From positions 1 to 64,000 of the forward strand of contig NZ_SMNA01000014.1 in assembly GCF_004353825.1 (NCBI RefSeq): DNA of 64,000 nucleotides. The letters are read 5' to 3'. Positions 1 to 10,707 of this stretch are shown one piece after another. The position numbers and the translations under genes are program-made. Within the stretch, counting starts at the first letter, position 1. Each line of letters opens with the position of its first letter. This DNA is from Occultella glacieicola (lineage in GTDB: Bacteria > Actinomycetota > Actinomycetes > Actinomycetales > Beutenbergiaceae). Under the pieces are notes generated by a model. The model saw nothing but the letters and a program-made list of their open reading frames with translations, did not search any database and was not told the origin of the DNA.

Positions 1-845
1 CACCCCGGCTCCGGCGGCCCGTCGCCGACCGGTGCCGGGCCGGCGGGCTCGGACCGGCCCGCCGGGCCGGCCGTGTCGACACGGCCGGCCGGGTAGACCC
101 GGGACCATGGTGGAGCCGGTGTGCCCGGGGACGTTCCGCCGTCGGGCCCTGCCGCCGCTGCGTCCGGCGGCGCCGACCACGCGCCGAACGGCACCACCAC
201 GTCGGGACGTGGGCTCGTCCCGTCGGGTCCGCGCACGCCGGCCGGGGCCTGCGCCACCGCATCGGGTGAGTACGCGCGCGCGGCCCGCGTGAGGAGGTCG
301 CGCGCCAGTGCGTCCCGCACGGCCCCCGCGTCCGTCGGGAGGTCCGGGCCGGCCACGCCGTCGAGCCGGATCCGGGTCCAGCCGGGAGCATCGTCGTCGG
401 TCGCCGGGACCAGGGCATCGACGAGGCGGTCGAGGACATCGGCGTCCGCGCCGAGCACCTGCTCGGCGGCCCAGCCGAAGCCCCGTGCTGCCAGGGCGGC
501 CACCTCCGCGAACCCGGGTGTCCGGCCCACCGTCCGGGCACCCGCCAGGTGCAGGGCGAGCGCCTCGAACACTACGCGCGGGTGCTCGTCCCCCCGCGCG
601 GGTTCCCCGGCGTCCGCGGAGCGGGCGACCGCCAGCACCGCGGCGGCAACGGCGGCGACGTCACCCGGAGCGACGGCGTCGGACTCGGCGACGACGCGCG
701 AGCGTTCGCCGAACCCGAGCGGACGCAGGACCGTGCCACCCACGCGCAGCCCGCCGCCCGATCCCGTCGGGGCCACCTCGATTGTTCGGTCGCCCACCAC
801 GGCCCGCCCGGCGCCGAGGTCGAGCACGACTCCAGACGCGGACAT
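1..845 (-). CDS. Tail-operon protein, possibly tail assembly chaperone-like, with Pro/Gly-rich C-terminal part (truncated by window edge)
   Basis: Not in the ORF track. Manual translation from ATG 845 (MSASGVVLDLGAGRAVVGDRTIEV...LRPLGFGERSR...FAEVAALAARGFGWAAEQVLG...) stays open to position 1 and starts 5 nt after the tube-like gene stop. Confidence 0.6.
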   Translation of the reverse strand, partial: MSASGVVLDLGAGRAVVGDRTIEVAPTGSGGGLRVGGTVLRPLGFGERSRVVAESDAVAPGDVAAVAAAVLAVARSADAGEPARGDEHPRVVFEALALHLAGARTVGRTPGFAEVAALAARGFGWAAEQVLGADADVLDRLVDALVPATDDDAPGWTRIRLDGVAGPDLPTDAGAVRDALARDLLTRAARAYSPDAVAQAPAGVRGPDGTSPRPDVVVPFGAWSAPPDAAAAGPDGGTSPGTPAPPWSRVYPAGRVDTAGPAGRSEPAGPAPVGDGPPEPG

Positions 846-850
846 GTCGG

Positions 851-1231
851 TCAGTTCTCCTCACGCACCCGGGCGGCGCTGAACGAGTAGACGGCCTCAC
901 CTGTGCCCCCGACGGTCAGGTCGAAGGTCTTCGCGGTGAGGAAGCACTCGTCGAACGTCACCGTCGACGTGGTCTCGCCGTGGCGCAGATTGGCCACGAT
1001 CTGGAACAGCTGCTCCCCGGTGAGGGCGTCCAGCGCGACCGACGCCGACGCGACCCGGAGGCGACCGTCGACGTCGTACGCGCCGGAAGTGACGCCGACC
1101 CGTTCCGTGCTGCCGAGGGCGTACACGTTGCTGCGCGCCCGCCGCATCCGGTAGTCGATCCCCTGAACGCCCTCCACCGGCTGGCCGTCGACGAGCACCG
1201 AGCTCTCGGTCGCCGCGAATACCGTGGCCAT
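851..1231 (-). CDS. Putative contractile tail tube protein (126 aa)
   Basis: Directly after the sheath gene with an AGGAGAGG-type RBS. Beta-rich pattern typical of tube proteins (VLVDGQPVEGVQGIDY...VYALGS...VDGRLRV...TVTFDECFLT...YSFSAARV). Confidence 0.7.
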   Translation of the reverse strand: MATVFAATESSVLVDGQPVEGVQGIDYRMRRARSNVYALGSTERVGVTSGAYDVDGRLRVASASVALDALTGEQLFQIVANLRHGETTSTVTFDECFLTAKTFDLTVGGTGEAVYSFSAARVREEN

Positions 1232-1260
1232 GTCCTGTCACCCTCTCCTGGGTTCCGCGG

Positions 1261-2955
1261 TCAGTTCTTGACGCGGATGGTGGCGTACACGTAGTCGATG
1301 GCCCGGACCGGGCGCACCGCGATGTCCACCCGCACGATGCCCTGTGCGAAGTCGGCCTGGGTGGAGTAGACGTCCACGATGAACGCCGGGTCGGTGCCGT
1401 CGGTGCTCGGCACCAGGGCGCCGGCCCGCTCCATCCGGGTGAACACGGCGACGAGCTGCTGCTTCAGTGCCGTACGCGCGTCCGCGGAGTTGAGGCGGCC
1501 GATGAAGTTCTCCGCCGTCGCCTTCGTCTCCCGGATGCAACGGTCCGCCACCCGGGTCACCGAGATCTGGTCGCCGCTCGTGTCGATGCCCTTGAGCACG
1601 ACCACGCCACGGCCGACGCGTTGCTGCACCACGAGCAGGTTCGTGGACGGCCCGAGCAGGCGGTTGAGCTCGCTCTCGCGGTAACGCGCCGGCGCGATCC
1701 CGAGCAGCGGAGCGCCCTTGAACGTGGGCGACTCCTGCGGCTCCATCCGCCCGATCAGGCCGGCGACCACGCCGGCGGCGCCGGCGGGTGCCACCAGCAC
1801 GAACCGCCGGTTGCGGACCGCGGCCGCGTGGTCCCGGATCGCGTCGAGGTCCGCCGCGTCCGCCGGGCGTACCGACCCGAACGCGATCCGCGGTGCCCCG
1901 GCATCGGTCATCACGACCGCGTGTGCGAGCAGGGCTTGGTGGATCGACACCACGGCGTCGGTGGCGAGGGTCGGTTCGAAGGAGGCGAGCACGAGGTCGA
2001 TCCGGGGGTCCTCGGCGAGAAGGTCGATGGCGGCCCGGTAGGCGGCCAGGTTCGGGGAGGCACCGTCGGTGAACGCCACCGGCGCGGAGGTCGCGCGTGG
2101 CAGCCGTTCCCCCTCGGCGAGGGAGCTGCGGGCGGTCGCCCGGACGAACCGGCTCTGGGCGGAGAGGACGGCGGGCAGGTGCCGGGCCGAGTCCGGGTCC
2201 ATGGTCAGGTGCTCGTGCAGCTCCTGCCGGGCGCCGTTGCGGAGCACTTCGACCGAGATCTCGTCGTCGGATCCCTCGATGGTGACGCTGACGCCGTCGG
2301 GCTCCGCCCCGCGCGCGAGGTTGACGTCCATGAGGATGGTGCCGGGCGCCCCGTCCTGCGGCACGGCGACCGTGCCCTCCTCGGACAGCGGATAGCTGCC
2401 CTCGGCGGGGTCGTCACCCTCGAACCCGGGCTCGACGGCGACCACATGGGCGGACCTCGCGTTGACCACGTCGAACAGGTCGAGCGACTCTCCGGGCTCG
2501 ACCACCAGGTCGTCGAACCGCTCCACCTCCGCGCCGTCGAGCAGGATCCGCAGGGTCACCCGGACGACGTCGCCGGCCGCGTTGGTGACCGCCCGGACAT
2601 CCGCGGAGAGCCGGTCCGCCCACGCGCCGCTGGACCGGGCCCGCAGCCGGACCGCCGGATTCCCGGCCGGGTTCACCAACGTCGCGCGGGAGGGAGCGCC
2701 CCCCGTGACGGCGGAGACCACGACCTCCCGGGCGCCGCTGAACAGTGCGTGCGCGGCCTCGGGCATCGACGCGACGGTGCCCGGGCCGAGCAGGTCCTGC
2801 AGTTCGGCCACCCTGCTCACACCCACCAGCGCGGGCTGCGGTGGCGGTCGGTCGACGATCCCGACGACACCCACGATGCCGGCCGCCGCGGGCAGCGGCG
2901 GCAGGACGTCGAAACTGGCTTCGACCGAGACTCCCGGGACGACGAGTACGGGCAT
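1261..2955 (-). CDS. Phage-type contractile tail sheath protein (564 aa)
   Basis: N-terminal PGVSVE, A-R-S-x-G-x-W motif (RARSSGAWAD), ISVTRVAD...FIGRLN, and C-terminal GIVRVDIAVRPVRAIDYVYATIRV, all characteristic of the sheath family. Confidence 0.9.
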   Translation of the reverse strand: MPVLVVPGVSVEASFDVLPPLPAAAGIVGVVGIVDRPPPQPALVGVSRVAELQDLLGPGTVASMPEAAHALFSGAREVVVSAVTGGAPSRATLVNPAGNPAVRLRARSSGAWADRLSADVRAVTNAAGDVVRVTLRILLDGAEVERFDDLVVEPGESLDLFDVVNARSAHVVAVEPGFEGDDPAEGSYPLSEEGTVAVPQDGAPGTILMDVNLARGAEPDGVSVTIEGSDDEISVEVLRNGARQELHEHLTMDPDSARHLPAVLSAQSRFVRATARSSLAEGERLPRATSAPVAFTDGASPNLAAYRAAIDLLAEDPRIDLVLASFEPTLATDAVVSIHQALLAHAVVMTDAGAPRIAFGSVRPADAADLDAIRDHAAAVRNRRFVLVAPAGAAGVVAGLIGRMEPQESPTFKGAPLLGIAPARYRESELNRLLGPSTNLLVVQQRVGRGVVVLKGIDTSGDQISVTRVADRCIRETKATAENFIGRLNSADARTALKQQLVAVFTRMERAGALVPSTDGTDPAFIVDVYSTQADFAQGIVRVDIAVRPVRAIDYVYATIRVKN

Positions 2956-2956
2956 G

Positions 2957-3023
2957 GTCCGCTCCCCACAGTGGAAGCGAGCGGACGTGGGTCAGGTCCA
3001 CACGAGGCGTGAGCGTCCGCTCA
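2957..3023 (-). promoter_or_regulatory. Sheath 5' leader with alternative pairings over the RBS
   Basis: mRNA sense reads GAGCGGAC (3022-3015), GTCCGCTC (2986-2979), GAGCGGAC (2964-2957, overlapping SD GGGGAG). Confidence 0.4.
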
Positions 3024-3062
3024 GGGTGACTCCTATGGTCCTCGCGCCCGGGGGGCGTCGCT

Positions 3063-3078
3063 ATGCCCTTTCGGGCAT
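3063..3078. promoter_or_regulatory. Inverted repeat ATGCCC-tttc-GGGCAT, candidate operator
   Basis: Perfect 6-bp arms in the divergent intergenic region between the sheath and peptidase genes. Confidence 0.35.
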
Positions 3079-3152
3079 CCGGAAGTGCGATGAGTTCCGG
3101 CACCGGCCCGGGTCTGCACCCACGTCCACCCTCCGCGTGCCCTGGAGCCACC

Positions 3153-3812
3153 ATGAAACTCCTGCTCACCTCGGGCGGCGTCACGAACCCGAGCATCCGT
3201 TCGGCGCTCGAGAAGCTGCTCGGCAAGCCGATCGGCGAGTGCGCCGCCCTGTGTGTCCCGACGGCGCAGTGGGGCCACCCGATGTGCGGCCCGGCATCGG
3301 TTCGGGGTCTGATCGCCGCCGATCACGACTTCCGCCACTTCACCGGCCTGGGCTGGGCCTCGCTGGGTGTCCTCGAGCTTACCGCGCTGCCCAGCATCGG
3401 TGCCGACCGCTGGGTGCCGTGGGTCCGGGAGGCGGACGTGCTTCTGGTCGACGGCGGCGACGCCACCTACCTGGCCCACTGGATGCGCGAGTCCGGCCTG
3501 GCCGACCTGCTGCCGTCACTGCCGGACACGGTCTGGGTCGGGGTCAGCGCCGGCAGCATGGTGATGACGCCGAGGATCGGGCACTACTTCGTGGAGTGGC
3601 CGGGAGCGACGGACGACCGCACGCTCGGGGTCGTCGATTTCTCGATCTTCCCGCACCTCGACGCCTTCCCGACGAACACCATGGCGGCCGCACAGCGCTG
3701 GGCTGCCGAGATCGACGGTCCTGCCTACGCCATCGACGAACAGACGGCCATCGCGGTCGTCGACGGCTTCGTCGAGGTGGTCTCCGAGGGGAACTGGACG
3801 GCGTTGGCCTGA
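3153..3812 (+). CDS. Peptidase S51 (peptidase E) / class I glutamine amidotransferase-like protein
   Basis: MKLLLTSGG start, DVLLVDGGD, nucleophile elbow GVSAGSM, FPH, YAIDEQTAI; GGAG RBS before ATG 3153. Confidence 0.85.
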   Translation: MKLLLTSGGVTNPSIRSALEKLLGKPIGECAALCVPTAQWGHPMCGPASVRGLIAADHDFRHFTGLGWASLGVLELTALPSIGADRWVPWVREADVLLVDGGDATYLAHWMRESGLADLLPSLPDTVWVGVSAGSMVMTPRIGHYFVEWPGATDDRTLGVVDFSIFPHLDAFPTNTMAAAQRWAAEIDGPAYAIDEQTAIAVVDGFVEVVSEGNWTALA

Positions 3813-3837
3813 GCGCCGGGAGCGGCCCCGGTCAATC

Positions 3838-3941: not shown

Positions 3942-5555
3942 GTGCAGATCTCACGTCGAGGATTCCTACTGGGTGCGGCCACCGTCGGCGCGGTGGGCGG
4001 ATCGTCCGTCACCGCCGCCCACGCCGGACCCGGGACCGTCGGTCGGCCCTCCCCGGCACCACGCGCCCCCGGAGCCTGGACCTCGGAACTCGTCCGGGTC
4101 ACCGGGCGCGGCGGGCTCGTGTATCCCCGCCGCGACGGGCACCGGATCCCGGACTTCGGGCACGCCGGGTACCACCGAGGCGGCCGGGAGCTGCCGGACG
4201 TGCCCGTCGCGCACTCGATCGCTCCGTTGCCGGGCGGCGCGGACAACCACGACCACATCGAGGCCGCGATCGCCGTGGTCGGGGCCCTCCCGGTGGGCGC
4301 GGACGGCTTCCGCGGGGCCCTGCTCCTCGAGGCGGGCACGTACCCGGTGAGCCGGACCATCGACCAGCCCTACAGCGGCGTGGTCATCCGGGGTGTCGGG
4401 GACGGGCCCGACCCGGCGACCAACACGATCATCCGGCCACAGGACGGGGACCCGGAGCGCAGTGCCGTCATCATCGGCGACAACGGGGACTGGGACGGTG
4501 CGGTGCCCGGCACCCGCACCGACATCGTCAGCGACCTGGTCAGGGTGGCAGACGCCTCCTTCACCGTCGCGGACGCCTCCGGCCTGGCCGTCGGCGACAA
4601 CCTCATCATCGTCCACCCGTGCACGCAGGAGTGGATCGACGCCGTGGACGGCGGCGGCACCGGCGCGGACGACCCGTGGACCCCGGGCCAGCTCCCGATC
4701 ATCTTCAACCGGTACGTCACCGCGATCAGCGGAAACCGGGTGAGCGTCGACGTGCCGCTGTTCACCACCCTTGACCGGTCCCTGTCCCAGAGCTACGTCT
4801 ACGTGTGGGACCAGGCCGGCCGGGTCACCGAGGTCGGCATCGAGGACGTGCGCGTGGACGTCGCCTACGACGGCCCGACCACCCAGAACGGGTCCCACGC
4901 CAAGCACGCGATCCGGATCCGGCAGGCCGAGGACGCCTGGGTGCGGCGGTGCACCGTGCTGCACTTCAGTCAGTCCGGCATCGTCACGGGCACCACCACC
5001 CGGGCCACGGTCGTCTCCTGCCACGCCCTGGACCCGGTCTCCGAGATCACCGGGAGCATGCGCTACAACTTCAACCTGGAGCGCAACTCCCAGCAGGTGC
5101 TGTTCAGCGACTGCCATGCCAGCGAGGCCCGGCACGCGTTCGTCTCGAACGGGACCAGCTCGGTCTCCGGCGCGGTCTTCCACCGGACCACCGCCACCGG
5201 GTCACATACCTCGAGTGAGGGGCACCGGCAGTGGACCCAGGGCCTGCTGTTCGACAACCACACCGAGATCGCACCGAACAGCGAACGCACCATCGGCCTC
5301 TACAACCGCGGCGACTACGGCACCGGTCACGGCTGGTCCGCGGTCCACTCCGTCGCCTGGAACACCGACACCGCCGGTACCCAGTTGATCATCCAGCGCC
5401 CACCCACCGGCCAGAACTACGCGATCGGGTGCTCCGGGGACGTCAGCGGCGACGGCCCGTTCGCCCATCCCGAGGGATGGATCGAGGGCACCGGCCGGGA
5501 TCGGCTCGTGCCCGAGTCGCTCTACGAGGCCCAGCTGGCGGACCGGCTCCGGTAG
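3942..5555 (+). CDS. Tat-exported right-handed beta-helix (pectate-lyase-like) carbohydrate-active protein
   Basis: SRRGFL twin-arginine signal with AHA cleavage site, IPDFGHAGY motif, LLEAGTY...SGVVIRGVG, AAGGAGG RBS. Confidence 0.75.
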   Translation: MQISRRGFLLGAATVGAVGGSSVTAAHAGPGTVGRPSPAPRAPGAWTSELVRVTGRGGLVYPRRDGHRIPDFGHAGYHRGGRELPDVPVAHSIAPLPGGADNHDHIEAAIAVVGALPVGADGFRGALLLEAGTYPVSRTIDQPYSGVVIRGVGDGPDPATNTIIRPQDGDPERSAVIIGDNGDWDGAVPGTRTDIVSDLVRVADASFTVADASGLAVGDNLIIVHPCTQEWIDAVDGGGTGADDPWTPGQLPIIFNRYVTAISGNRVSVDVPLFTTLDRSLSQSYVYVWDQAGRVTEVGIEDVRVDVAYDGPTTQNGSHAKHAIRIRQAEDAWVRRCTVLHFSQSGIVTGTTTRATVVSCHALDPVSEITGSMRYNFNLERNSQQVLFSDCHASEARHAFVSNGTSSVSGAVFHRTTATGSHTSSEGHRQWTQGLLFDNHTEIAPNSERTIGLYNRGDYGTGHGWSAVHSVAWNTDTAGTQLIIQRPPTGQNYAIGCSGDVSGDGPFAHPEGWIEGTGRDRLVPESLYEAQLADRLR

Positions 5556-5656
5556 CCCATGCCGGGCGCGCCGGACGTTTTTACACGGCGCGCCCTTGCG
5601 GCCCTTGCTAGGTTCGATCCGAGGTTGATCGTGCGGCCAACGAACGGCGGGGATCG

Positions 5657-6967
5657 ATGTCCGGATCGAACACAGCAGATGGGGCAATGACGCCCCTGGA
5701 GCGGGGCCAGCGGTCGCGAGCGACCGTCATGCTGGTCCTGGCCACGGTCGGGTTCGGCGTGAACTTCTGGGCCTGGTCGCTGATCTCGCCACTCGGCGGC
5801 GACTACGGCGGCCGGCTCGGCCTGACCGGCTTCCAGCAGTCCACCCTCGTGGCCATCCCCGTGCTGGTCGGATCGCTGGGGCGGATCCCGATCGGGGCGC
5901 TGACCGACAAACTCGGGGCGAAGTTCATGTTCCCCCTGGTGAGCGTGCTCACCATCGTCCCCGTGCTGTTCATCGCGTTCGTCGCGGACTCCTACGCGAT
6001 GATGCTGCTCGGCGGCTTCTTCCTGGGCCTGGGTGGCACCACGTTCGCGATCGGGGTGCCGTTCGTCTCCTCCTGGTACCCGGTCTCCAAGCGCGGCGCC
6101 GCGCTGGGGATCTTCGGAATGGGCACGGCCGGGACCGCCGTCTCGGCGTTCACCACGGTGCCGCTCGCCGACGCCTTCGGGCGGGAGGCACCGTTCGTCC
6201 TGGTCAGCGTGATCCTGGCGATCTACGCCGTCGCGAGTTATCTGCTGCTCCGGGAGTCCCCGGACCGTCCCGAGCCGACCGGCTCCTTCATCGCGAACAC
6301 GGTCGCAACGATGCGGCTGGGGGTCACCTGGCAGCTCGCGGCGCTGTACGCGCTCGGATTCGGCGGCTTCGTCGCGTTCAGCGTGTACCTGCCGACCTAC
6401 CTGGTGAACGCGTACGGGCTCACCGGCACGGACGCCTCGTTCCGCACGGCGGTGTTCGTGATCCTGGCCGTGATCGCCCGCCCCGTCGGCGGCGCCCTCT
6501 CGGACCGGGTCGGTGCGATCAAGGTGCTGCTCGTGAGCTTCGTGGCCACCGGCGTGTTCGCGGCCATCGACGCCATCGGGCTCCCGCTGGTGCCGATCCC
6601 GACGGCCGCGTTCCTGGGCATGGCCGCCACCCTCGGTGCCGCGTCCGGGGCCACGTTCGCGCTCGTCGGGCAGGTGGCCCCGCCCAACAAGGTCGGGTCC
6701 GTCACCGGCGTGGTCGGCGCCGCCGGCGGCCTCGGCGGCTTCGTGCCGCCGCTGGTCATGGGCGCCACGTACGACGCCCTCGGCAACTACACGCTCGGCT
6801 ACGCCCTGCTCGCCCTGGTCGCCTTCGGCATGGCCGCCTTCACCTGGGGTCCGGTGCGCACGGCGGCGCGGCGTCGGGCCGAGGCCGCCGCGGCGTCCGA
6901 GAGCAGCGGCCACCCGGCCACGACGGACCCAGGCCCCGCAGCACCGACCGGAAGGAACCCGTCATGA
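5657..6967 (+). CDS. narK: Nitrate/nitrite MFS transporter (start could be 5687)
   Basis: About 12 hydrophobic segments, GSLGRIPIGALTDKLG, nitrate-signature Gly-rich motifs, overlaps narG start. Confidence 0.9.
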   Translation: MSGSNTADGAMTPLERGQRSRATVMLVLATVGFGVNFWAWSLISPLGGDYGGRLGLTGFQQSTLVAIPVLVGSLGRIPIGALTDKLGAKFMFPLVSVLTIVPVLFIAFVADSYAMMLLGGFFLGLGGTTFAIGVPFVSSWYPVSKRGAALGIFGMGTAGTAVSAFTTVPLADAFGREAPFVLVSVILAIYAVASYLLLRESPDRPEPTGSFIANTVATMRLGVTWQLAALYALGFGGFVAFSVYLPTYLVNAYGLTGTDASFRTAVFVILAVIARPVGGALSDRVGAIKVLLVSFVATGVFAAIDAIGLPLVPIPTAAFLGMAATLGAASGATFALVGQVAPPNKVGSVTGVVGAAGGLGGFVPPLVMGATYDALGNYTLGYALLALVAFGMAAFTWGPVRTAARRRAEAAAASESSGHPATTDPGPAAPTGRNPS

Positions 6968-9900
6968 CGACGCAGCAGACCCCGCCCGGGCTGGACACCG
7001 GGATAGTGGAGGGCCTGCTCAAGGCCCGGCGGTTCTTCCAGCCGAAGGAGGTCTCCCCGGACCTACGCACGCTGCACCAGCAGGGTGGTCGGGACGCGGA
7101 CACGTTCTACCGGGACCGCTGGTCCCACGACAAGGTGGTCCGCTCCACCCACGGGGTCAACTGCACCGGATCCTGCTCGTGGAAGGTGTACGTCAAGGAC
7201 GGCATCATCACCTGGGAGGCACAGCAGACCGATTACCCGAGTGCCGGCCCGGACCGCCCCGACTACGAGCCCCGGGGCTGCCCGCGCGGCGCCGCGTTTT
7301 CCTGGTACACCTACTCCCCCACCCGGGTCCGCTACCCGTACGTGCGCGGCGTCCTGCTCGAGATGTACCGGGAGGCCAGGGCCCGCCTCGGCGACCCCGT
7401 GCTCGCGTGGCGCGACATCACCGGCGACCCGGAGCGGTCCAAGCGGTACAAGTCGGCCCGCGGCAAGGGCGGCCTGGTCCGGGCCGGCTGGGCCGAGGCG
7501 ATCGAGATGATCGCCGCCGCCCACGTGGCGACCATCAAGGACTACGGGCCCGACCGGATCGCCGGGTTCTCCCCGATCCCGGCGATGTCGATGGTCTCCC
7601 ACGGCGTCGGATCGCGGTTCTACTCCCTCATCGGTGGCGCGATGTTGTCCTTCTACGACTGGTATGCGGACCTGCCGGTCGCCTCGCCGCAGGTGTTCGG
7701 GGACCAGACGGACGTGCCGGAGTCGGGCGACTGGTGGGACGCCGGGTACCTGATCATGTGGGGCTCGAACGTGCCCGTGACTCGCACCCCGGACGCGCAC
7801 TGGATGGTGGAGGCGCGCTACCGCGGCCAGAAGGTCATCGCGGTCGCACCGGACTACGCGGACAACGTGAAGTTCGCCGACGAGTGGCTCGCGCCCGTCC
7901 CCGGCACCGACGGTGCGCTCGCGATGGCGATGGGGCACGTCGTGCTGAAGGAGTTCTTCGTCGACCGGCGTGCCCCGTACTTCGTCGACTACACCCGTTC
8001 CTACACCGACCTTCCGTTCCTGATCCGGCTCGATCCCGACGGCGAGGGTTACGTCCCGGGGAAGTTCCTCACCGCCGCGGACCTGCCGGCGGGCACCCCC
8101 GGCCGGGGTGAGCACGACGAGTTCAAGACCGTGGTGCTCGACTCCTCCACCGGGGCCCCCGTGGTCCCGAACGGCTCGCTCGGGTTCCGCTTCGGCGACG
8201 AGGGCGTGGGCAAGTGGAACCTCGAGCTCGGCGACACGGTCCCGGCGCTCAGCATCGCCGACGCCGCCGCTGCCGGTGCTCCGCCCGGCCCGGACACGGT
8301 GCCGGCCGCGGTGCCCGTGAGCCTGCCCCGGTTCGACACCCCCGACGGCGCCGCTGCCGCGATCGTTCGCGGCGTCCCGGTGCGGCGGGTCGGCGGGCAC
8401 CTGGTCACCACGGTCTTCGACCTGCTGCTCGCGCAGTACGGCGTCGGGCGCCCCGGTCTGCCGGGCCACTGGCCGACCGGCTACGACGACCCCTCCTCTC
8501 CGTGCACGCCGGCGTGGCAGGAGGCCATCACCGGCGTGCCGGCGAAGAAGGCCGCGAAGATCGGCCGGGAGTTCGCCGCGAACGCCGAGGAGTCCCAAGG
8601 CCGGTCGATGATCCTGATGGGCGCCGGCACGAACCACTGGTTCCACTCCGACGCCATCTACCGGGCGTTCCTCACCCTGACCACGATCACCGGGAGCCAG
8701 GGCCGCAACGGTGGCGGCTGGGCGCACTACGTGGGCCAGGAGAAGGTCCGCCCATTGACCGGCTTCACCCAGTACGCGAACGCCCTGGACTGGTCCCGCC
8801 CGCCGCGGCACATGATCCAGACGGCGTACTGGTTCCTGCACACCGACCAGTTCCGCTACGACGCGTTCACCGCGGACGAGCTCTCCGGCCGCCCCGGCGG
8901 CCGGTGGGCCGGCATGACGACGGCGGACATCCTCGCCCAGTCCGCCCGACTCGGCTGGTCCCCGTCCTACCCGACGTTCGACCGCAGCTCCCTTCAGGTG
9001 GTCGACGACGCGGAGGCCGCCGGTCAGGACGTCGCCACCTACGTCCCCGCCCAGCTCAAGAGCGGGGACCTGCGGTTCGCCGCGGAGGACCCGGACGCTC
9101 CGGAGAACTTCCCGCGGGTGCTCGGCATCTGGCGCTCGAACCTGCTCGGCAGCTCCGCGAAGGGCGACGAGTACTTCCTGCGGCACCTGCTCGGGACCGA
9201 CCACGCCGTGAACGCCACCGAGACGCAGGAGGACAAGCGCCCACGGGACGTGGTCTGGCGTGACGACGCGCCCGCCGGGAAGCTCGACCTGCTGTTCACC
9301 CTCGACTTCCGGATGACCTCCACCACGGTGTTCTCCGACATCGTCCTGCCGGCGGCCACCTGGTATGAGAAGCACGACCTGTCCAGCACGGACATGCACC
9401 CGTACGTGAACTCCTTCAACCCCGCGATCGCGCCGCCGTGGCAGGCGCGCACCGACTTCGAGGCGTTCCACAACCTCGCCGCGGAGTTCTCCCGGCAGGC
9501 CGGCGAGCACCTCGGCACCCGCAAGGACCTGGTCGCCGTCCCCCTCACGCACGACACCCCGGACGCGCTCGCCACGCCGTCGGGCATCGTGAAGGACTGG
9601 AAGTTCGGCGAGTGCGAGCCGATCCCCGGCAAGACGATGCCGAAGCTCGTCGTCGTCGAACGCGACTACACCGCCGTCGCGGACAAGATGCGCTCGGCCG
9701 GCCCGCTGCTGGAGAAACTCGGCGCCACCACGAAGGGGATCACGTTCGACCTGGCCCACGAGGTGGACCTGCTCCGGGACCTGAACGGTCCGGCCCGCGG
9801 CGGCGTCGCGGAGGGCCGGCCTGCTCTTGAGCAGGACCGGCAGGTGTGCGAGTTCATCCTGTCCCTGTCCGGTACCACGAACGGGCACCTGGCCACCGCC

Positions 9901-10707
9901 GGGTTCCACTCCCTCGAACAGCGCACCGGCCAGCAGTTGGCGGACCTGGCCGCCGAACACGAGGGCAAGCGGATCCGGTTCGCCGACACCCAGGCGGCAC
10001 CGACCCCGGTGATCACCTCACCGGAGTGGTCCGGCTCGGAGAGCGGTGGCCGGCGCTACTCGGCGTTCACGATCAACGTGGAACGGTTGAAGCCGTGGCA
10101 CACCCTGACCGGGCGTCAGTCGTTCTACCTGGACCACGACTGGATGACCGAGATCGGGGAGAACATGCCGGTCTACCGTCCGCCCCTGAACATGGCGGTG
10201 CTGTTCGGGGAGACCGCCATCGGCCAGAGTGCCGACGGTACCGCGGGCGCCACGATCGCAGTTCGCTACCTCACTCCGCACAACAAGTGGTCGATCCACT
10301 CCGAGTACCAGGACAACCTGCTCATGCTGAGCCTGTCCCGCGGCGGGCCGGCGGTGTGGATGTCCAACCTGGACGCCGAGAAGATCGGGGTCGCGGACAA
10401 CGACTGGATCGAGTGCGTGAACCGCAACGGGGTGGTCGTGGCCCGGGCGATCGTCTCGCACCGGATGCCCGAGGGCACCGTGTACATGCACCACGCGCAG
10501 GACCGGCTCATCGACGTGCCGCTGTCGGAGAAGTCCGGCAAGCGCGGCGGCATCCACAACTCGCTGACCCGGATCATGATGAAACCCACGCACCTGGTGG
10601 GCGGGTACGCGCAGTTGTCCTATGCGTTCAACTACATCGGTCCCACCGGCAACCAGCGCGACGAGGTCACGCTGATCCGCCGCCGTTCCCAGGAGGTGCA
10701 GTACTGA
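6964..10707 (+). CDS. narG: Respiratory nitrate reductase alpha subunit
   Basis: RSTHGVNCTGSCSW Fe-S motif, SFYDWYADLP, C-terminal GNQRDE; 1247 aa. Confidence 0.98.
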   Translation: MTTQQTPPGLDTGIVEGLLKARRFFQPKEVSPDLRTLHQQGGRDADTFYRDRWSHDKVVRSTHGVNCTGSCSWKVYVKDGIITWEAQQTDYPSAGPDRPDYEPRGCPRGAAFSWYTYSPTRVRYPYVRGVLLEMYREARARLGDPVLAWRDITGDPERSKRYKSARGKGGLVRAGWAEAIEMIAAAHVATIKDYGPDRIAGFSPIPAMSMVSHGVGSRFYSLIGGAMLSFYDWYADLPVASPQVFGDQTDVPESGDWWDAGYLIMWGSNVPVTRTPDAHWMVEARYRGQKVIAVAPDYADNVKFADEWLAPVPGTDGALAMAMGHVVLKEFFVDRRAPYFVDYTRSYTDLPFLIRLDPDGEGYVPGKFLTAADLPAGTPGRGEHDEFKTVVLDSSTGAPVVPNGSLGFRFGDEGVGKWNLELGDTVPALSIADAAAAGAPPGPDTVPAAVPVSLPRFDTPDGAAAAIVRGVPVRRVGGHLVTTVFDLLLAQYGVGRPGLPGHWPTGYDDPSSPCTPAWQEAITGVPAKKAAKIGREFAANAEESQGRSMILMGAGTNHWFHSDAIYRAFLTLTTITGSQGRNGGGWAHYVGQEKVRPLTGFTQYANALDWSRPPRHMIQTAYWFLHTDQFRYDAFTADELSGRPGGRWAGMTTADILAQSARLGWSPSYPTFDRSSLQVVDDAEAAGQDVATYVPAQLKSGDLRFAAEDPDAPENFPRVLGIWRSNLLGSSAKGDEYFLRHLLGTDHAVNATETQEDKRPRDVVWRDDAPAGKLDLLFTLDFRMTSTTVFSDIVLPAATWYEKHDLSSTDMHPYVNSFNPAIAPPWQARTDFEAFHNLAAEFSRQAGEHLGTRKDLVAVPLTHDTPDALATPSGIVKDWKFGECEPIPGKTMPKLVVVERDYTAVADKMRSAGPLLEKLGATTKGITFDLAHEVDLLRDLNGPARGGVAEGRPALEQDRQVCEFILSLSGTTNGHLATAGFHSLEQRTGQQLADLAAEHEGKRIRFADTQAAPTPVITSPEWSGSESGGRRYSAFTINVERLKPWHTLTGRQSFYLDHDWMTEIGENMPVYRPPLNMAVLFGETAIGQSADGTAGATIAVRYLTPHNKWSIHSEYQDNLLMLSLSRGGPAVWMSNLDAEKIGVADNDWIECVNRNGVVVARAIVSHRMPEGTVYMHHAQDRLIDVPLSEKSGKRGGIHNSLTRIMMKPTHLVGGYAQLSYAFNYIGPTGNQRDEVTLIRRRSQEVQY

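Follow-up and report, generated by a model that had tools for sequence, protein, structure and literature searches.

Contractile injection systems (CISs) have been catalogued and re-engineered as protein-delivery tools, and the catalogues rest on profiles of the Afp/PVC type. Tailocins of the R-type kill by puncture, without cargo genes, and their loci include a holin and endolysin for lysis and a tail fibre paired with its chaperone. According to the part of the survey by Chen (2019; PMC6899500) that is drawn on here, more than 85% of the loci of extracellular contractile injection systems (eCISs) encode Afp1/5, 2/3/4, 7, 8, 9, 11, 15, and 16, and an Afp15-type AAA+ ATPase occurs in eCIS subtypes I and II. 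Here we analysed a stretch of 64 kb of Occultella glacieicola DNA (hereafter, the window), which constitutes the first 64 kb of contig C5 (NZ_SMNA01000014.1) in an assembly of 5.34 Mb and 23 contigs, and which has a GC content of about 72%. Results of our analysis indicate that positions 1-2955 of the window very likely form the beginning, on the 5' side, of an operon of 17 genes (~24.8 kb in addition to an assembly gap) for a headless, phage-tail-derived contractile injection system whose lineage is distinct from the Afp/PVC-type eCISs and from known R-type tailocins. The lineage is rare, well conserved, and spread across phyla, and it has apparently been missed by Afp/PVC-type profiles, its tube being invisible to sequence families. 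It is without a recognised ATPase or cap and carries a fixed block of giant accessory proteins. A full-text literature search, which left most subscription journals uncovered, returned no paper describing it.

The operon resembles the tail modules of P2, Mu, and PBSX myophages, as well as those of diffocin and pyocin R2, in gene order: sheath, tube, a ruler slot, a small protein, a hub equivalent to gpD/gp44, a separate spike equivalent to gpV/gp45, gp25/J/I, and fibres. Its 17 genes encode, in order, the sheath, the tube, protein X, a 219-aa (amino acid) protein (Y219), a gpD-like hub, a gpV-like spike, a PAAR protein, a gp25-like protein, a J-like protein, a 423-aa protein in the gpI position (I423), p167, two fibre-like coiled-coil proteins (p319 and cc508), p300, p539, p1101, and a giant YD-repeat protein of 2,127 aa that bears a zinc-protease motif. 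The first three are represented in the window by co-oriented minus-strand open reading frames (ORFs) within positions 3-2955. Base 1 of the window is the end of contig C5, and the finding thus lies at the extreme edge of assembled sequence; the window section considered for it ends at 10.7 kb. The relevant features of the window are as follows.

1261-2955, minus strand: tail sheath, 564 aa, gene 1 of the operon, assigned by Pfam PF17482, PHROG 279, and the fold of its AlphaFold2 (AF2) model
851-1231, minus strand: tail tube, 126 aa, assigned by comparison of its AF2 fold with solved tubes
1-845 (frame 3-845), minus strand: N-terminal 281 aa of protein X, truncated by the contig end, a candidate tape-measure-like ruler
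2956-3152, no strand: divergent intergenic region of 197 bp, the presumed promoter region of the operon
3153-3812, plus strand: peptidase S51 paralogue (Pfam PF03575, E 7.7e-15), terminal gene of the island, outside the conserved cassette
3813-3814, no strand: island boundary; the chromosome resumes at 3814, with an empty site in congener G001

The original prediction, made from the letters of the window, described co-oriented sheath, tube-like, and chaperone-like genes, with the sheath as the first gene of the operon and with only a 197-bp intergenic region and a divergent peptidase upstream. The co-orientation, the sheath, the tube, and the first position of the sheath in this genome are borne out, and the likely start codon of the S51 gene, an ATG at 3153, leaves exactly 197 bp (2956-3152). 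The chaperone-like label of the third ORF, that of protein X, is not supported: Pfam, PHROGs, and NCBIfam are all blank for it.

The sheath can be recognised from its sequence, which matches Pfam Phage_sheath_1C (PF17482; E 1.1e-7, 32.3 bits vs. a cut-off of 26.9) and PHROG 279 "tail sheath" (E 2.4e-18). In its AF2 model, which was built from 35 input sequences and has a mean pLDDT (predicted local distance difference test) of 90, the predicted fold proves the sheath identity, the best Foldseek matches being those of phage 812, the Halogeometricum (H. borinquense) CIS, DSY3957, phiCD508, and Lin1278 (E 6e-19 to 1.5e-16). Searches of the Protein Data Bank (PDB) with the sheath sequence gave zero matches to solved sheaths. 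A comparison by hhalign with the sheath of the canonical CIS encoded on contig C11 of the same genome (probability 97%, E 1.2e-10, 21% identity) indicates that the two sheaths are remote homologues.

In a large protein collection, 499 homologues of the sheath were found at E<=0.001. Among the 120 listed, the identity is 60-84%, and the named sources are Mycolicibacterium, Mycobacterium, Agromyces, Paracoccus, Anaerolineae, and Solirubrobacteraceae. When 1.84 billion representative proteins were searched with a sheath-family profile, only 439 scored E<=1e-3, and the main sheath clade forms one cluster at 50% identity. The sheath was not found in any of the 40 relatives searched, including three congeners, and was found in one of 400 other genomes sampled across the phylum. 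Neither a tblastn search of 50,697 phage records (zero matches at E<=1e-3) nor an IMG/VR pattern scan (zero matches) revealed a counterpart of it.

The assignment of the 126-aa ORF as the tail tube comes from fold comparison. It has zero matches to tail families in Pfam or NCBIfam, Pfam giving only a sub-threshold match to Attacin_N, and zero matches in the PDB by sequence and by profile. Its AF2 model (pLDDT 80, 35 input sequences) matches best the diffocin tube 8v3t (Foldseek E 3.4e-8, TMq 0.75), followed by the tubes of phiCD508 and phage 812, then by HFTV1, Mu, the PVC/Afp tubes, and Hcp, with 78 matches at E<=0.001 in total. In PHROGs, its sole match (E 1.1e-6) is to the N-terminal part of phrog_9206, a family that bears the label major head protein; the predicted fold argues for a tube over this head label. 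No Pfam domain is present in any of the 344 homologues of the tube.

For the remainder of the operon, the original prediction had pointed to the 20-30 kb to the left of the window as the place to look for baseplate, spike, and ATPase genes, or for those of a phage. The window begins at a contig end, and the continuation was found instead on contig C20, where the hub, spike, PAAR, gp25-like, and J-like genes follow those of the sheath and tube and are intact, and where no gene for an AAA ATPase, capsid, terminase, portal, or integrase was found. In the M. senegalense locus, the genes of the sheath and tube are followed by those of a gpD/Mu gp44-like hub, a gpV-like spike, PAAR, gp25-like, and Baseplate_J proteins, and further proteins. 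A tblastn search of the O. glacieicola genome with the M. senegalense proteins placed Y219 through p317 in order at C20:282-8156, with 54-72% identity. The spike, encoded by a gene separate from that of the hub, matches PF04717 above the cut-off (E 2.1e-5), as does the PAAR protein PF05488 (E 1.7e-7), and the hub matches PF05954 just below the cut-off (E 9.5e-7, 28.7 vs. 30.1 bits); in M. senegalense, the hub has further matches to Gp44-like_2nd and YQBQ-like. The gp25-like protein matches PHROG 975 (E 6.4e-15) and also PHROG 43, and the J-like protein matches PHROG 6 "baseplate wedge" (E 6.5e-35), its M. senegalense orthologue being recognised as Baseplate_J (PF04865, E 6.7e-18). The apparent absence of gp25 and J genes outside C11 in genome searches with the GPW_gp25 and Baseplate_J families was a miss of a first-look filter, as tblastn and PHROGs place both genes on C20; negatives of the genome-wide PF04865/PF04965 search, which missed these divergent genes, are thus weak for this lineage. 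In total, tail-family cut-offs of Pfam are reached by three of the 17 proteins (sheath C-terminal domain, spike OB domain, and PAAR), and the only NCBIfam match above cut-off among the 17 is the YD repeat of the giant protein, whose gene ends at C20:21880. The gene pairs p319/cc508 and p300/p539 overlap in their start and stop codons, and the other gaps are of 54 nt or less; because the codons overlap or nearly abut, the 17 genes read as one operon of 24.8 kb plus the gap, as judged from their arrangement.

The same set of genes forms a cassette in distant relatives. As compared with O. glacieicola, all 17 genes are present in the same order in Mycolicibacterium senegalense (ATCC 35796) and in a representative of Thermoanaerobaculia, and 16 of the 17 in Actinophytocola; a locus of Agromyces was also included among the relatives' loci compared. 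The identity of sheaths across the relatives, which belong to Actinomycetota and Acidobacteriota, is 57-79%. In the Actinophytocola locus (L024, ~8742), there is no PAAR match, and the spike gene is directly followed by the gp25-like gene; PAAR may be optional in the lineage.

The cassette is headless. Neither the island that contains it nor the 44 ORFs that flank it in four relatives showed a capsid, terminase, portal, or integrase family, and the reading frames on C20, those of the downstream genes included, are open and of full length against the relatives. Adjacent capsid or terminase genes and decayed downstream genes, which the original prediction had named as the signs of a phage or of its remains, are thus not observed, and its reading of a stand-alone contractile tail operon, a domesticated injection machine, gains support from the full baseplate and spike set, the intact frames, and the headless island and relatives' flanks. 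In the complete genome of congener G001, the matches to the window from 3814 onwards and to C20 from 22971 onwards lie 30 bp apart, which sets the limits of the island at C5:3813 and C20:22970. Hence, the island probably comprises C5:1-3813, the gap, and C20:1-22970 (~26.8 kb), and its absence from the congener points to its acquisition. Besides the cassette, it includes a single additional gene at each of its two ends, encoding a peptidase S51 paralogue and an M23 peptidase. The four genes that flank the cassette in O. glacieicola have no counterpart beside it in M. senegalense, Thermoanaerobaculia, or Actinophytocola.

Protein X spans the junction of the two contigs. Its C-terminal 90 aa are encoded by C20:1-273 in frame 1, where the GC content at third codon positions (GC3) is 0.88 and the terminal TGA overlaps with the ATG of the gene that follows. 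Another ORF, C20:2-445, was considered as the C-terminus of X and rejected; its product is Arg-rich (K+R 0.31), and the coding sequence reads in frame 1. Three relatives have X as a single uninterrupted ORF of ~380, ~420, and ~612 aa. Because the N-terminal ~190 aa and a C-terminal motif are conserved, and the middle part varies in length and has a high content of proline, alanine, and glycine, X looks more like a length-ruler protein than a chaperone. Tape-measure proteins are usually helical; in X, the Pro/Ala/Gly-rich composition is found instead. A k-mer overlap search with the start of C5 against all 46 contig ends gave no join. Positions 783-816 of the window match C20:9-42 perfectly on the same strand (34 bp), which, relative to X, is an inverted repeat of its 5' part and 3' part; this repeat may be real or may be an assembly artefact at the end of C20. 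A cluster of GC-rich palindromes occurs at window positions 34-102 (arms 62-77/78-93 at 94% and 34-48/57-71 at 93%), within the proline-rich part of gene X, and is a plausible reason for the assembly break.

The remaining small proteins gave fewer leads. Y219 matches DUF6046 below threshold in all four genomes and GpU in one of the four; a role as a tube initiator of the Cis7/gpU type is a guess from gene position, and hhalign with the Cis7-like protein of C11 gave it no support (probability 0.2-0.3%). Similarly, the guess of p300 as an Afp16-type cap gained no support from comparison with the Afp16-like protein of C11 (hhalign probability 0.3%), and p1101, considered as a tape measure, did not match a 1,129-aa protein of the C11 locus (BLASTP E 0.6; Atlas returned its own family only). 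Profile searches of the PDB with Y219, I423, and p319 returned nothing below E 0.18, and sequence searches with the same three proteins returned zero matches. Proteins p319 and cc508 share a 43-aa module that ends in an HxHP motif (44% identity, E 3e-6) and is followed in both by long helical regions. In Atlas, the clusters nearest to p167 are those of phage proteins, and tail-fibre families provide weak leads. Together, p167, p319, and cc508 may form a fibre network. Family, Atlas, and BLASTP comparisons yielded zero leads for p300, p539, and p1101.

The giant protein is the candidate payload, or payload carrier, of the system. In O. glacieicola it matches PF05593 (E 1e-10) and TIGR01643 (E 4.4e-11, 42.8 bits vs. 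a cut-off of 15.8), and RHS_core NF041261 at 24 bits vs. a cut-off of 2000. Its family has 64 members, most of them ~1,900-1,950 aa long and bearing domains of the RHS_repeat and Teneurin-like YD-shell types, and the YD-shell annotation PF25023 applies to the O. glacieicola protein and to most of the 64. Over ~1,900 residues, the trunk shares 48-53% identity with its counterparts in M. senegalense and Actinophytocola, and it contains a central HExxH motif in all four genomes, which was considered as a DUF4157/eCIS_core domain and rejected, as PF13699 does not match the giant protein. Several members end in phospholipase-D domains (~2,450-2,580 aa in total), two carry tyrosinase, and most have no C-terminal extension. 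The O. glacieicola copy has ~170 extra C-terminal residues, absent in M. senegalense and Actinophytocola, with an HExxHxxGxxH motif and sub-threshold matches to M7, M10, and reprolysin, i.e., of metzincin-like character. The role of payload is proposed because polymorphic toxins are built in this way, from a conserved trunk and swappable C-terminal enzymes; the swappable enzymes also suggest a natural modular payload system. The likeness to Rhs/YD toxins concerns the YD-repeat shell and the variable C-terminal domain that follows a conserved trunk. In contrast to those toxins, in the giant protein the YD region is short and N-terminal and is followed by ~1,400 residues of conserved non-YD trunk with the central HExxH, an N-terminal PAAR or VgrG-binding domain is absent, and most members end without a C-terminal extension. 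Rhs toxins have an Rhs core with an autoproteolytic motif at its C-terminal boundary and a cognate immunity gene; no immunity gene was identified here, no search having been aimed at one.

The gene content suggests how such a particle might be built and act. The hub, spike, and PAAR, together with the gp25, J, and I wedges, would form the baseplate, on which the tube would polymerise to a length set by X; the sheath would then assemble around the tube. The fibre-like proteins would recognise the target, and contraction of the sheath would push the PAAR-tipped tube through the target envelope. The giant protein of ~1,900 aa would be the payload or its carrier, with a host-dependent C-terminus: none, metzincin-like (in O. 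glacieicola), phospholipase D, or tyrosinase. As a tentative proposal, to which we give somewhat less than an even chance, the system may go back to a Mu/PBSX-type phage tail that was domesticated independently, and would then be a contractile injection system of a third kind, neither R-type tailocin nor Afp-type eCIS. It would have an obligatory accessory block of five proteins (the 508-aa coiled-coil protein, those of 300 and 539 aa, an acidic one of ~1,100 aa, and the YD-shell/zincin protein of ~1,900 aa) that load, aim, or anchor it, and swappable enzyme warheads (metzincin-like, phospholipase D, and tyrosinase). It would have spread horizontally through soil and host-associated Actinomycetota, Chloroflexota, Acidobacteriota, Myxococcota, Armatimonadota, and Pseudomonadota, and would have been overlooked, as the tube and most other parts match no curated family. 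The presence of mycolic-acid bacteria (Mycolicibacterium species) among the carriers raises the question of how a tail-like particle assembles in, exits from, or fires through such an envelope.

Several points weigh against the reading of the cassette as an intact injection machine of a separate lineage. Protein X is interrupted by the assembly gap in O. glacieicola, and we infer the adjacency of C5 and C20 from synteny and the empty site, with no read or sequence spanning it. The lineage of the sheath cannot be placed by its predicted fold: Foldseek ranks sheaths of large myophages first, yet in VIA-align comparisons with all solved sheaths (those of phages, pyocin R2, diffocin, Afp, PVC, AlgoCIS, tCIS, and Streptomyces CIS) the Z values are 21-29 at 9-19% identity for phage, tailocin, and eCIS sheaths alike, and all of them are within ~8 Z units. 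The roles ascribed to Y219, I423, p167, p300, p539, and p1101 are guesses from gene position or weak leads. The YD region of the giant protein covers only residues ~200-480, with at most two repeat stretches in Pfam. The dN/dS ratios of nonsynonymous to synonymous substitutions (0.15-0.55 for eight genes tested against two relatives), which indicate that the cassette is under purifying selection, are rough, as dS is compressed by strong GC3 bias. Finally, Pfam and PHROG scans of the conserved cassette did not recognise a cap or terminator, an AAA+ ATPase, a tail-fibre family, a holin, or an endolysin, and for this reason the completeness of the particle and its exit from a thick-walled cell are unexplained by the recognised genes.

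The last point bears directly on the site of action. We consider the chances about even that the particles are released by lysis and act on other cells, and we favour this over a system that never leaves the cell, being cytoplasmic, like the Streptomyces CIS, or anchored in the membrane, as type VI secretion systems (T6SSs) are, with p539, p1101, and the giant protein as parts of anchoring or firing control and not cargo. The intracellular mode is a possibility of rather low probability, the remainder falling to other or mixed modes. It would accord with a conserved cassette without lysis genes in the Pfam and PHROG scans, with the conservation of five large accessory proteins along with the tail, which is unusual for cargo, and with hydrophobic stretches in p539 (505-523) and in the giant protein (1333-1351). 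Moreover, the parts of two reports that we draw on (PMC11566945, PMC12998442) present CIS lineages that were once thought extracellular and proved cytoplasmic or membrane-bound. However, the hydrophobic stretches are few and weak (Kyte-Doolittle 1.7-1.8), the fibre-like coiled-coil proteins and the PAAR tip suggest a foreign envelope as the target, and the enzyme domains that vary at the C-terminus of the giant protein resemble those of polymorphic toxins. Scans with Pfam and NCBIfam detected no ClpV/AAA, no TssJLM, and no other Tss family, but only weak domain-level matches to VgrG and PAAR; nor was any other membrane-complex family detected in the Pfam scans. Unlike the TssB/TssC pair of T6SS, the sheath is a single 564-aa protein. 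The M23 peptidase encoded at C20:22332-22940, within the island, is a possible cell-wall hydrolase for the release of particles. Its N-terminus is hydrophobic, and its gene is absent at the DNA level from three congeners and from the cassette flanks of three relatives.

It is improbable that the cassette is an ordinary member of the Afp/PVC/Streptomyces-type eCISs that is too divergent for hidden Markov models. With the eCISs (Afp, PVC, MAC, AlgoCIS, tCIS, and Streptomyces CIS) it shares a headless locus, the sheath, tube, and hub, a PAAR-tipped spike, gp25-like and J-like wedge proteins, a large toxin-like protein at the 3' end, and patchy spread across phyla, and its sheath is the remote homologue of the C11 sheath described above. 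The canonical actinobacterial CIS on C11 (C11:171138-187200) permits a side-by-side comparison within one organism. It encodes a Pvc16_N cap, an AAA+ ATPase, an eCIS_core/DUF4157 protein, the sheath, two gp19 tubes, a CIS_tube protein, a fused VgrG, gp25, J, P2_I, and the 1,129-aa protein, which has no assignment; the recognised parts have E values of 1e-17 to 1e-41. Downstream of this locus, a zinc-ribbon/F5_F8 type C protein and a large BTAD/AAA regulator are encoded. At E<=0.001, Pfam recognises 12 of the 14 C11 proteins, nine of them as members of CIS or tail families, as opposed to the three cassette proteins that reach a tail-family cut-off. The ATPase family, found at C11 with E 3.5e-22, is not matched by any of the 17 cassette proteins at E<=0.01, and the eCIS_core/DUF4157 domain is likewise found at C11 and not in the cassette. 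A genome search for the cap family Pvc16_N (PF14065) returned C11:171138 only, the same kind of search having missed the J-like gene on C20. In the cassette, the hub and spike are separate proteins, in contrast to the fused VgrG of C11, and one tube gene is recognised, vs. two PF06841 tubes and a CIS_tube protein at C11. The tube of eCISs belongs to the Afp1/5 family of T4 gp19 (PF06841) and is usually present in several copies. The original prediction that the tube is not gp19-like holds, with zero match to PF06841 and an hhalign probability of 0.5% against the C11 gp19 tube; the tubes of the two loci are unrelated by sequence.

The distribution of the lineage argues in the same direction. 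In Supplementary Data 1 of eCIStem (Geller 2021, PMC8213781), the entries used here, those of M. senegalense CK1 and CK2, M. conceptionense D16 and MLE, and M. neworleansense ATCC 49404, are scored ecis=0. For homologues of the sheath and tube, the sources named are M. conceptionense, M. neworleansense, and the genus Mycolicibacterium, and the full cassette was seen in M. senegalense ATCC 35796, a strain other than those scored. The earlier suggestion that the locus may be a different lineage, outside the described eCIS subtypes, therefore agrees with the lack of a sequence match to any solved sheath, the 21% identity to the C11 sheath, the failure to find an ATPase or Pvc16_N, and the ecis=0 scores of the relatives' species in those entries.

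A cargo-less R-type bacteriocin, with the five downstream genes as an unrelated neighbouring operon, is more doubtful still. The order of sheath, tube, ruler, hub, spike, gp25, J, I, and fibre genes is that of diffocin, PBSX, and Mu, an AAA+ ATPase is lacking in all of them, and the tube fold is nearest to the tubes of diffocin and phiCD508, with Mu also listed. Yet the downstream genes are in the same order in three relatives spanning two phyla, are tightly packed with the tail genes, as their overlaps at p319/cc508 and p300/p539 and the otherwise short gaps show, and are followed by the end of the island just past the giant gene and a single M23 peptidase gene. In contrast to P2/Mu/PBSX tails and R-type bacteriocins, the cassette includes a PAAR tip gene, has no phage relative at the sequence level and no neck or collar gene 5' of the sheath, contains no recognised lysis cassette or fibre family among its 17 proteins (Pfam, PHROG), and encodes five extra conserved proteins of 300-2,127 aa, including the YD-shell/HExxH protein, downstream of the tail genes, where the cargo-less R-type tailocins have no counterpart. 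As judged from its gene content, the system appears to stand outside the Afp-type eCIS family as defined and is probably not a classical R-type bacteriocin either. Least credible is a decaying prophage remnant, i.e., a tail module with no present function left after the loss of head and replication genes, as, in spite of the P2/Mu/PBSX tail layout, the resemblance of the tube fold to phage and phage-derived bacteriocin tubes, and the proximity of the island to a tRNA gene of the kind used by prophages, all frames are open, the gene order and the sheath are conserved across Actinomycetota and Acidobacteriota, the dN/dS values are low, head, packaging, and integrase genes are lacking beside the cassette, and no related phage is found in the 50,697 records.

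Regarding the ends of the island, its boundary on the C20 side is located shortly beyond a terminator-like hairpin, at a distance of 48 bp from the tRNA-Val(GAC) 3' end. Genes of tRNA are typical hot spots of integration and of prophages. The original prediction had counted adjacent att sites against its reading. No integrase or direct repeat was seen at the island ends, although the island adjoins such a hot spot, which qualifies the support for that reading. A tRNA-Gly/tRNA-Cys/tRNA-Val(GAC) cluster (C20:23019-23282) and tRNA-Val(CAC) (C20:24597-24669) flank a gene of a chorismate-binding enzyme. At the other end, the S51 copy next to the sheath is 84.5% identical to the congener gene, as compared with 88.6% for the true orthologue on C6 (C6:92453-94323), and this host-like paralogue is absent from the cassette flanks of three relatives.

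In the intergenic region between the two divergent genes, inspection of the 197-bp sequence gave no sigma-70 consensus promoter and no intrinsic terminator, and a Shine-Dalgarno-like motif, GGGGAG, lies a few bases 5' of the sheath ATG. In two of the three relatives with upstream sequence, M. senegalense (L014:8671-9474) and Agromyces (L013:8656-9483), a BTAD (SARP-type) regulator is encoded directly 5' of the sheath; the two regulators are 71% identical, and the regulator is missing in Actinophytocola and in O. glacieicola. Beyond the island, at window positions 3942-10707, the chromosome encodes a beta-helix protein, a major facilitator superfamily (MFS) transporter, and a 1,247-aa molybdopterin oxidoreductase.

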